IMG/VR virus record: IMGVR_UViG_2850796239_000006
Reading direction: 5' to 3' (one strand)
Length of the DNA: 52,929 nt
Source of the DNA: a virus
Taxonomy: Duplodnaviria > Heunggongvirae > Uroviricota > Caudoviricetes
A program made the translations under genes and the position numbers. Shown piece by piece: positions 20,035-21,130 of this stretch; the first letter of the stretch is position 1; each line of letters starts with the position of its first letter. Below the pieces are notes generated by a model that saw only the letters and a list, made by a program, of their open reading frames with translations, was not told where the DNA came from and ran no database searches.

Positions 20035-21130
20035 CCCTGAAGCCCGGCGGAATTTCGTTATCCGGTTCAGAAATATGATTCACACAACGCTGGTTGTTCG
20101 TGCCGCTTACCGGGAGCAACCAGGGGTTCTCAAAATTCCGGTCCGGTCCAAAAAACGTCGTCGCTCGCTGAACAAATTCCGTTCCCGTTTTCCCGGTAGC
20201 CGCCAAGTATCTTGCGTAACGCCTCACGCCATCCAGCATGGCCTCTGGTGGCACCCCCTCGCGTAATCTGGCCTTCCAGGCACTGAAAGCGGATTTCTTC
20301 GGGTTTGCTCCGGCACGCAACGGGTACTCCCGCCAGACCTGTTCGAACACATCCGGATAATCCACTCGTCCCACAGACTGCCCGGTGTTTTCCGGGACTA
20401 CCCGATCGGCTTCCCGCTGAATGGCGGAATCGGCTTCGGGCTGCTGCAGTTGGTGTGATTGCTCCGGCCTTGCGGTCATCACCTGCTGCACAGCGCCCGA
20501 ATCGGCTTTCAGCGCATACGCTGAATCGGCTTCCGGTGTCGTGCCTGCTGGCTGACCAAGATTGACGGTCTGAACATCCCCTGCCTGGTTCGTGGCGTTT
20601 TTTACGCCATGGACCATAGTGTTTTGATCTTCTTGATCTGTATCTTTATCTGTATCTTTATCTGTATCTTTATCTGTATCTTTATCTGTCGTGACTCGTC
20701 GTGACATGTGCGTGACATTTCGTGACGCGCCGTGACAATCGCCATTTTGTTCCCGCTTTCTTTCCCTCTCTCGCTGCGCCCTCTTGCGCTCTGCAGGAGA
20801 TTTTGCGGTTTGCGAAATATTGCCGTTGTCCTCTTTAAGCACCTGGCGTTTTTCCCATCCAGTGATTAAATCACCATCAAGTACCCGCCCCTGCATCGTC
20901 TGCAAAATTGAATCAATTACCTCTTCTGTCACGTCGAGCGCACTTGCCAAATCTTCTGTCGTGACATCAATGTGACCTCGCGTGACATTTCGTGACGCGC
21001 TCACCAGGAGGTGGATATACACTGCCATCACTGTTGCAATTGGCTGCCCTGACACCCTGGCAATTGTTCGCCACTTAGGGTCATTTGGCATGTCATGCCA
21101 TAATCTGAGCCAGGCGTTAGCCATACTCAC
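20006..21130 (-). CDS. Replication initiator / replisome organiser (lambda O-like), 3' end fused to the IS10-like terminus
   Basis: 374-aa ORF; internal (TDKD)n repeat encoded by tandem 12-bp repeats; contains clusters of CGTGAC iteron-like repeats; last residues and stop are IS-encoded (original end ...PPGFRG). Confidence 0.65.
   Translation of the reverse strand: MSMANAWLRLWHDMPNDPKWRTIARVSGQPIATVMAVYIHLLVSASRNVTRGHIDVTTEDLASALDVTEEVIDSILQTMQGRVLDGDLITGWEKRQVLKEDNGNISQTAKSPAERKRAQRERERKREQNGDCHGASRNVTHMSRRVTTDKDTDKDTDKDTDKDTDQEDQNTMVHGVKNATNQAGDVQTVNLGQPAGTTPEADSAYALKADSGAVQQVMTARPEQSHQLQQPEADSAIQREADRVVPENTGQSVGRVDYPDVFEQVWREYPLRAGANPKKSAFSAWKARLREGVPPEAMLDGVRRYARYLAATGKTGTEFVQRATTFFGPDRNFENPWLLPVSGTNNQRCVNHISEPDNEIPPGFRAEGSPQNYC
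20641..20736. repeat. Putative replication-origin repeats inside the O-like gene
   Basis: Four tandem copies of TATCTTTATCTG (20641-20688) followed by five CGTGAC hexamers at 10-11 bp spacing (20690-20736); a second CGTGAC cluster at 20950-20986. Confidence 0.5.

Follow-up and report, generated by a model that had tools for sequence, protein, structure and literature searches.

The stretch of viral DNA analyzed here (IMG/VR record IMGVR_UViG_2850796239_000006, a caudovirus; 52,929 nucleotides, hereafter the 52.9-kb window) carries a gene for a replication initiator, or "replisome organizer", at positions 20006–21124 of the minus strand. The gene was assigned from the list of open reading frames and a match to PHROG 3729, and it contains two arrays of short direct repeats and an AT-rich tandem repeat. 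A previous reading of the sequence, here called the original prediction, had taken these repeats for the iteron-type origin of a prophage. Coordinates are those of the plus strand of the window, and the sense strand of the gene is the minus strand. The longest open reading frame, 20006–21130, opens with a GTG at 21130 that is located inside the Shine-Dalgarno-like sequence AGAGGTG. The initiator probably starts at the ATG at 21124, which is preceded by AGAGG and corresponds to the start annotated in phage Tritos.

The initiator matches PHROG 3729, "replication initiation protein", over its full length (E-value 7.5e-254; residues 3–365 aligned to profile positions 1–355 of 356), and PHROGs 4880 and 5968, both "replisome organizer", with E-values of 1e-8 and 5e-7. 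The N-terminal domain is a winged helix that has a DnaD-NTD-like fold and is nearest to the N-terminal domain of DnaD. For the C-terminal half, the PHROGs that match carry the names DnaD-like helicase loader or primosomal protein. NCBI labels close relatives either "phage replisome organizer" or "DnaT-like ssDNA-binding domain-containing protein". A Pfam search with the whole initiator returned only a spurious low-complexity match to TFIIF, and a profile search against PDB sequences gave no match. The gene is 96–97% identical, over nucleotides 1–1096 only, to the replication gene of the isolated E. coli phages Tritos, Evi, vB_EcoS-689R5, and others. It is present at a coverage of at least 80% in 1647 of 5426 complete Escherichia coli genomes, where it is mostly annotated as "hypothetical protein" or "phage replisome organizer"; the nearest genome locus is that of Shigella flexneri, with 99% identity. 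Many database entries for the initiator are marked "partial" and break off close to the repeats or where a contig ends, and short-read assemblies are probably broken here by the repeats and by multi-copy prophages.

Iteron array A, at 20960–20996 on the minus strand, is located in the part of the gene that encodes the winged-helix domain. It is composed of four sense-strand hexamers spaced by 10, 10, and 11 bp: GTCACG at 20991–20996 and 20981–20986, GTCACA at 20971–20976, and GTCACG at 20960–20965, which on the plus strand read as three CGTGAC and one TGTGAC. The four sites were already recognized in the original prediction, but the cluster had been placed 10 bp off, at 20950–20986, and one of the sites is a variant. 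The array codes for the peptide SRNVTRGHIDVT, which in the AlphaFold2 model forms a loop at residues 46–55, between helices 29–45 and 56–63. A single hexamer in the opposite orientation, overlooked previously, occupies 20928–20933 on the plus strand (CGTGAC on the sense strand). It is part of a 12-nucleotide inverted copy (20927–20938; 92% complementary) of the iteron at 20695–20706, and is separated from array B by about 190 bp of ordinary coding sequence.

Iteron array B (20690–20736, minus strand; nucleotides 389–435 of the gene) is located in the linker past the DNA-binding domain. It contains five sense-strand GTCACG hexamers (20731, 20721, 20711, 20700, and 20690), which are spaced by 10, 10, 11, and 10 bp. 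Read on the plus strand, these are the five CGTGAC at helical-turn spacing that had been predicted, with starts at 20690, 20700, 20711, 20721, and 20731 and spacings of 10, 11, 10, and 10 bp. The five hexamers fall into reading frames 2, 3, 1, 3, and 1. The AT-rich tandem repeat directly adjoins array B and extends over 20631–20689, where Tandem Repeats Finder reports 4.9 copies of the 12-bp sense unit CAGATAAAGATA with 97% matches. The four predicted copies of TATCTTTATCTG are present at 20641–20688, where they are perfect, and their minus-strand reading is TDKDTDKDTDKDTDKDTD, the (TDKD)n repeat of the protein. The tandem repeat is 73% A+T, compared with 47% for the gene. Among the 40-bp duplexes of the gene, the least stable falls inside this repeat and is at the 99.93rd percentile of the window.

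The clustering of the hexamers is far beyond chance. Nine exact hexamers occur within 307 bp, compared with 0.13 expected from the rate in the rest of the window (Poisson P = 2e-14). When all hexamers were scanned for at least four same-strand copies within 50 bp in the 52.9-kb window, only CGTGAC and the hexamers of the 12-bp tandem repeat were found. The two arrays, with four and five sites in one orientation every 10–11 bp, have the helix-phased form of at least three direct repeats that is characteristic of iteron origins, and the easily melted AT-rich element that accompanies such repeats lies next to them. DnaA boxes with up to one mismatch were absent from the gene and its surroundings, and their count across the window was at chance level. 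A scan for promoters and terminators likewise gave results at chance level; the only matches were a weak antisense promoter-like sequence, which is made by the iterons, and a palindrome at 20586–20616.

According to the original prediction, absence of the repeats from orthologous genes would have counted against an origin. We surveyed one genome per species, which provided 51 loci from gamma-, beta-, and alpha-proteobacteria, and the outcome did not speak against an origin: orthologues from Escherichia, Shigella, Serratia, Rahnella, Pseudomonas, Aeromonas, Bordetella, Chromobacterium, Acidovorax, and others have both arrays and the AT-rich repeat at matching places in the gene. About 25 of the loci have GTCAC(G) arrays at gene nucleotides ~129–160 and ~387–430, and the inverted hexamer is found at nucleotide ~193 in most homologues of the GTCACG type. 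Pseudomonas phage phita81A and Aeromonas phage pAEv1818 have only the N-terminal segment in common with the window (gene nucleotides 18–470 and 7–290, respectively, at ~70% nucleotide identity in blastn), and their regulators and C-terminal modules are unlike those of the window. Both phages nevertheless retain the two arrays and the inverted site at equal gene positions. Homologues keep three to five hexamers in array B, in contrast to the linker sequence around them, which is not conserved. Conservation is lacking in the spacers as well as in the linker upstream of array B (0.1–0.5 bit), and the flanks of the hexamers carry little information (0.1–0.8 bit).

A peptide needed by the protein, SRNVT or TDKD, could in principle yield DNA repeats as a by-product, and it is true that the sequence ASRNVTRGHxDVT is invariant in the subfamily and that SRNVT recurs in the linker. 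However, the hexamers occur in all three reading frames and encode the different peptides VT, SR, or CH/GH, and therefore a peptide repeat cannot explain them. Synonymous positions are furthermore frozen inside the hexamers only. From 21 genes of the GTCACG type, which represent many genera, we calculated the codon entropy at each conserved four- or sixfold degenerate position of the domain. The codons that overlap hexamers are nearly or completely invariant: A43 (GCG, 0.55 bit), S44 (TCA, 0.28 bit), and V47 (GTC), T48 (ACG), G50 (GGT), V54 (GTC), and T55 (ACG), each with 0 bit. The 22 other conserved degenerate codons of the domain are saturated, with entropies of 1.44–2.36 bit. The two groups are fully separated (exact rank P = 1/C(29,7) = 6e-7), and R49, the third base of which is in a spacer, is free at 1.74 bit. 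In addition, other subfamilies swap both peptides together, as their changed hexamer dictates, and the array A loop tolerates insertions of seven and more residues that add hexamers. The reading-frame and synonymous-site analyses lead us to reject the peptide explanation, to which we give practically no credence.

In Escherichia albertii (L005, gene nucleotides 129–181) and in two E. coli O157 proteins (P0013 and P0018), array A contains a 21-bp insertion of seven residues, TCHGVSL, which contributes two further GTCAC hexamers, for a total of six. Still longer insertions in the loop, likewise built of hexamer repeats, are present in L029 and L039.

The identity of the hexamer differs among subfamilies. 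Over ~50 loci we distinguished GTCACG, GTAACG (L024, L026, L033, and L039), GTGACG (L050), and CGAACG/GAACGC (L031, L034–L037, L040, L042–L044, L046, L049, and L052), all of which have the 3′ half ACG in common. The subfamilies that lack GTCACG have their own hexamer with the same 10-bp phasing at both array positions. A motif-blind search showed that arrays A and B of a locus use the same hexamer, and a repeated hexamer was common to both fixed search intervals in 38 of 49 loci. Joint switching of two arrays that are 230 bp apart, one in the coding sequence of a folded domain and the other in an unconserved linker, is what would be expected of sites read by one lineage-specific protein.

The reader of the hexamers could be a protein other than the initiator, either a host factor or a phage regulator of the cI, Cro, or YdaT/CII kind, since such regulators are encoded immediately upstream. 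We consider this very unlikely. The same GTCACG arrays are found in the phages of Pseudomonas and Aeromonas, although these have a different repressor gene, cro, and neighboring genes, without DNA similarity to those of the window. One host genus can contain two hexamer types, as in Pseudomonas, where L011 has GTCACG and L034 has CGAACG, and there is no GTCACG in the cI/cro region of the window (20997–22898). The hexamer type correlates with a residue of the initiator itself. This residue, number 117, belongs to the basic helix that follows the wing; it is glutamine with GTCACG, tyrosine or phenylalanine with GTAACG, tyrosine with GTGACG, and tryptophan with CGAACG; in the window it is encoded by CAG at ~20774–20776, within AQRERE. 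Tyrosine or phenylalanine accompanies GTAACG in two different helix backgrounds. This pattern is suggestive of a specificity contact at residue 117, with the correlation confounded by phylogeny. Furthermore, the Pseudomonas and Aeromonas phages have only the N-domain segment with the arrays in common with the window, and therefore the cognate binder would travel with the segment.

Between hexamer types, no part of the domain varies more than the array A loop, which is at its surface. Should this loop contribute to site recognition, a change of hexamer would alter both the site and its reader in one step. The binding site and the recognition peptide (residues ~43–55) would then be written in the same nucleotides, forming a self-encoding specificity switch for a portable origin–initiator cassette, a speculative idea that we regard as quite unlikely. 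In a milder version, an NNNACG code may be read by a single residue of the basic helix, number 117 (glutamine, tyrosine/phenylalanine, or tryptophan). If this code is true, the specificity of the origin would be re-targetable by design.

The AT-rich repeat has also been maintained at the DNA level. In every GTCACG-type locus, a NNAGATAAAGATAAAGA-like sequence comes straight after the last hexamer of array B, and an AT-rich repeat of the AGATAAAGATA type follows array B in all hexamer types, as (GATAAA)n or (CAGATA)n in those other than GTCACG. The A+T content of the 40 nucleotides past array B exceeds that of the gene in 41 of 44 loci, by 20 percentage points on average (Wilcoxon p = 2e-8). 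Aspartate is encoded after array B by GAT and GAC at a ratio of 121:8, compared with 164:168 in the N-domain of the same genes, and lysine by AAA and AAG at 97:21, compared with 57:79. The skew holds even where the gene is only 33–39% A+T. Because of this codon usage, the (TDKD)n/(DK)n peptide is for the most part a by-product of selection for an AT-rich repeat in the DNA. Thus, the frozen hexamer codons, the concerted change of type in both arrays, and the enforced use of GAT and AAA show that the DNA itself, rather than the encoded peptide, is under selection at the hexamers and at the AT-rich repeat.

The AT-rich tandem is also the site at which the gene is shuffled. Its copy number is polymorphic, with ~2.5 units in Tritos and S. 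flexneri SFBU0723 and 4.9 in the window, and E. coli matches to nucleotides 1–1096 span 1066–1090 bp. In other E. coli genomes the N-terminal half (nucleotides 1–464, up to 99% identical) and the C-terminal half (nucleotides 506–1096) are joined to other partners. The exchange occurs between nucleotides 464 and 506 (~20625–20667 in the window), which makes the AT-rich tandem the joint at which this mosaic gene recombines. The separation of the halves and the change in tandem length, in steps of 6–12 bp, could mean that the repeats serve chiefly as a linker, prone to recombination or slippage, for the shuffling of modules, with no role in initiation. This reading, which has little probability in our estimation, leaves unexplained the frozen synonymous sites of array A inside a folded domain, the 10–11-bp phasing, the joint change of the arrays, and the enforcement of GAT and AAA in GC-rich hosts. 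Moreover, the lambda origin is likewise a hybrid junction, and therefore the roles of recombination joint and origin are compatible.

An imperfect palindrome with a 13-position stem and a 5-nucleotide loop is located directly past the AT-rich tandem, at 20586–20616. The scan that identified it accepted G–T pairs, and as DNA 11 of the 13 stem positions match. The palindrome belongs to the exchangeable C-terminal module, and palindromes of this type are no more numerous in the region than expected from shuffled sequence. The lambda origin also has a palindrome past its AT-rich tract; the one described here is no more than a possible part of the putative origin. The distal end of the tandem contains two GATC (Dam) sites, at 20626–20629 and 20635–20638, and AAAGATCT is found at the equivalent place, past the AT-rich repeat, in enterobacterial homologues (L007, L015, L023, and L027). 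The GATC sites may provide an input for Dam and SeqA or be a by-product of GAT codons.

The conservation among orthologues, the selection at the DNA level, and a layout that matches that of lambda support the original prediction of a prophage origin, with its function deduced from sequence. We consider it likely that the repeats form the replication origin of the prophage, placed inside the gene of its own initiator at 20631–20996 and composed of iterons and an unwinding element in a manner analogous to lambda, with other parts. Array B is probably the core initiator-binding array, and the tandem at 20631–20689 is probably the DNA unwinding element. We assign the core of the putative origin to array B and the tandem because array A is missing in L045, L047, and L048, where array B persists. 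The same module is carried at 96–97% identity by isolated phages that propagate.

The proposed mechanism extends from these elements to the encoded protein as their presumed binder. The N-terminal winged-helix domain, together with its basic helix, would bind the GTCACG hexamers. Because the hexamers are unidirectional and one helical turn (10–11 bp) apart, the bound protomers would all face the same side of the DNA and build up a nucleoprotein array. The CAGATAAAGATA repeat next to array B, as the place in the gene that melts most easily, would serve as the unwinding element in which melting starts. Array A, with its four sites ~230–260 bp upstream and one inverted site, may be auxiliary, and either strengthen the complex by looping or titrate and handcuff the initiator. 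After opening, the exchangeable C-terminal module would recruit the replicative helicase. The module of this lineage is DnaD/DnaT-like, and the host DnaB–DnaC are presumably used, because no phage gene for a helicase or loader follows. In phita81A and pAEv1818 the helicase would probably be supplied by the helicase-type gene of the phage itself, located downstream. Transcription from an early promoter of the rightward type would pass through the site, as in lambda.

In another explanation, the arrays are genuine initiator sites used mainly for control, through autorepression by roadblock, titration, or handcuffing, while replication starts elsewhere in the phage. The plasmid control loci incC/incA of P1 and those of R6K come to mind when two arrays are found apart from each other in and around an initiator gene, and array A is dispensable in some homologues. 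However, the codon-enforced AT-rich repeat next to array B, less stable as a duplex than any other part of the gene, marks an unwinding element and not an operator, and no other hexamer cluster is present anywhere in the 52.9-kb window. We therefore regard a control function alone as unlikely, although array A may have one, and control and initiation roles can coexist.

Several observations weigh against the assignment of a replication origin. Iteron arrays can serve autoregulation or copy control instead of initiation, and in the searchable literature we found no experiment that demonstrates binding, unwinding, or autonomous replication for this initiator family. Five of the surveyed loci (L030, L032, L038, L041, and L051) have no clear hexamer array. 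The relationship of the N-domain to characterized DNA-binding proteins is remote: the matches found by Foldseek among solved winged-helix proteins are non-significant, and the Pfam family PF09681 (Phage_rep_org_N) aligns nearly end to end (residues 5–123 on positions 1–119 of 121) but below threshold, with an E-value of 0.01 and 16.2 bits relative to a cut-off of 23.3. Comparison of the family profile with lambda O by hhalign gave a probability of 0.2%, and that of the N-domain profile with G38P of phage SPP1 was negative. Finally, the last codon of the gene is replaced and the prophage is riddled with insertion sequences, and this copy may be inactive.

The early region of the prophage is lambdoid and Rac-like. 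Upstream of the initiator gene are a YdaT/CII-like gene (21196–21621, minus strand), a cro/YdaS-like gene (21618–21944, minus strand), and a cI-like repressor gene (21952–22371, plus strand), and a DUF977/Ren-like gene (18257–18679, minus strand) is located on the other side. Taken as longest open reading frames, the cI-like and cro-like genes diverge from each other across a gap of only 7 bp (21944–21952), as is also annotated in Tritos. The true starts of the two genes, and hence the operator/promoter region, are probably internal; the cro-like protein may, for example, start at MNQKTLEDV. The insertion sequence ISSfl1 (IS4-like, 18786–20034) has inserted at ~20034/20035, at the exact 3′ end of the replication gene. 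It supplies the last ~29 nucleotides of the gene (20006–20034; match at nucleotides 1093–1125), which changes the native end ...PPGFRG* to ...PPGFRAEGSPQNYC*. ISSfl1 also parts the replication gene from the DUF977/Ren-like gene, which in Tritos follows directly. A second, interrupted copy of ISSfl1 is located at 16486–17708, and IS66-family genes at 22644–25282. The prophage looks like one of Shigella flexneri. The elements of the putative origin are all intact in the window; because ISSfl1 has altered the conserved C-terminal tail of the initiator and copies of insertion sequences flank it, the prophage is probably defective, even with a competent origin sequence.

With these repeats, a non-lambda replication module that is widespread among lambdoid and Rac-like prophages has a concrete candidate origin. 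The element is most likely the origin of a very common prophage type of E. coli and Shigella, which follows the lambda plan with an unrelated initiator family. An origin at this place would account for the frozen synonymous sites and for the precise coincidence of the AT-rich repeat with the point at which the N- and C-terminal halves recombine. The hexamer code (GTCACG, GTAACG, GTGACG, or CGAACG) may predict the replication specificity, and possibly the incompatibility, of co-resident prophages. Codon-based analyses or recoding of the initiator gene will meet a cis-acting element. The searchable literature, in which older phage work is thinly covered, contains no description of this origin and no paper that pairs GTCACG with iterons. 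The "Eru" papers on the replication regions of non-lambdoid Shiga toxin phages describe no origin for this initiator family.

The gene had been called O-like, which is appropriate for its lambda-like position and logic but not for its sequence, as no similarity to lambda O was detected. The family PF04492 (Phage_rep_O) gave no match to the initiator at E-values up to 0.01, nor to the N-domain alone at E-values up to 5, and we rejected the initiator as a homologue of lambda O. The predicted lambda-like layout is borne out: arrays followed downstream by an AT-rich tract are found in the central part of the first replication gene past the cro- and cII-like genes. The annotated lambda iterons are at nucleotides 349–433 of the O gene, nearly the same gene position as array B (nucleotides 389–435), and in both systems the sites are in a linker that joins the DNA-binding N-domain to a C-domain that recruits, or here would recruit, the helicase. 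The lambda plan of iterons and an AT-rich tract in the middle of O has been described, each lambda iteron is an inverted repeat, and the number of iterons differs among relatives of lambda, which adds residues to the protein (PMC7466680). The 21-bp insertion of seven residues in L005 resembles this variation in iteron number. The origins of the Shiga toxin phages P27 and 933W, with six iterons, are of the lambda kind. In contrast to the 18–19-bp inverted-repeat iterons of lambda, the sites described here are 6-bp direct repeats in one orientation every 10–11 bp. Furthermore, the prophage has a pair of arrays, one of which falls within the codons of the DNA-binding domain, and this lineage lacks a P-like loader gene after the initiator gene. 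Since it agrees with lambda neither in homology nor in the form of the iterons, the system is not of the lambda O type.

Phage SPP1 offers a second precedent. Its oriL fragment (35801–36151; PMC5615212) is within gene 38 (35578–36348), so the origin is inside the gene of its own initiator, as we propose for the prophage in the window. The initiator resembles G38P of SPP1 in the name "replisome organizer" and in the DnaD-NTD-like fold; its end-to-end profile matches, among them TIGR01714 (E-value 0.017; 15.3 bits relative to a cut-off of 49.8), stay below the curated thresholds. The repeat motifs of SPP1 are unlike those of the window, and SPP1 encodes its own loader and helicase. The second binding region of G38P, oriR, is far off in the genome (PMC5615212), whereas the second array described here is 230 bp away. 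The initiator is at best a remote relative of the N-domain of G38P.

The Rac prophage of K-12 (racR-ydaS-ydaT-ydaU-ydaV-ydaW, with oriJ) has the same order of repressor, cro-like gene, YdaT-like gene, replication gene, and DUF977 gene as the window. YdaU was rejected as an orthologue of the initiator: BLASTP aligned only a C-terminal tail of 19 residues and the low-complexity linker, and the initiator has no DUF1376 match. The DNA-binding half of YdaU (DUF1376; L055, E. coli K-12 Rac, 2620–3477) has no similarity to the initiator, and what the two proteins have in common is the C-terminal tail PDxxIPPGFRG and a TNKDTDKD linker. The repeats in ydaU are of the GATGTTCAA type, not GTCACG, and are located at 2972–3063, just before the linker. 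This suggests that ydaU uses the same origin plan of repeats plus a DK/TD linker with a different DNA-binding domain. Rac also has the DnaC-like ydaV, which has no counterpart in the window or after the replication gene of the intact relative Tritos.

In iteron plasmids and phage P4 (P1 incC/incA, R6K, and P4 ori/crr), a winged-helix initiator binds direct repeats next to an AT-rich unwinding element, and initiation is modulated through a second array. Plasmid iterons are 17–22 bp long and usually located outside the rep coding sequence, whereas the hexamers described here are embedded in coding sequence and have no DnaA box nearby. The features that set the prophage system apart from those of lambda and SPP1 are the helix-phased direct repeats of a hexamer, the presence of two arrays, and a GATAAA-type unwinding repeat that is maintained across the hexamer types. 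The candidate origin overturns no concept, and extends the paradigm of lambda and SPP1 to another initiator family.

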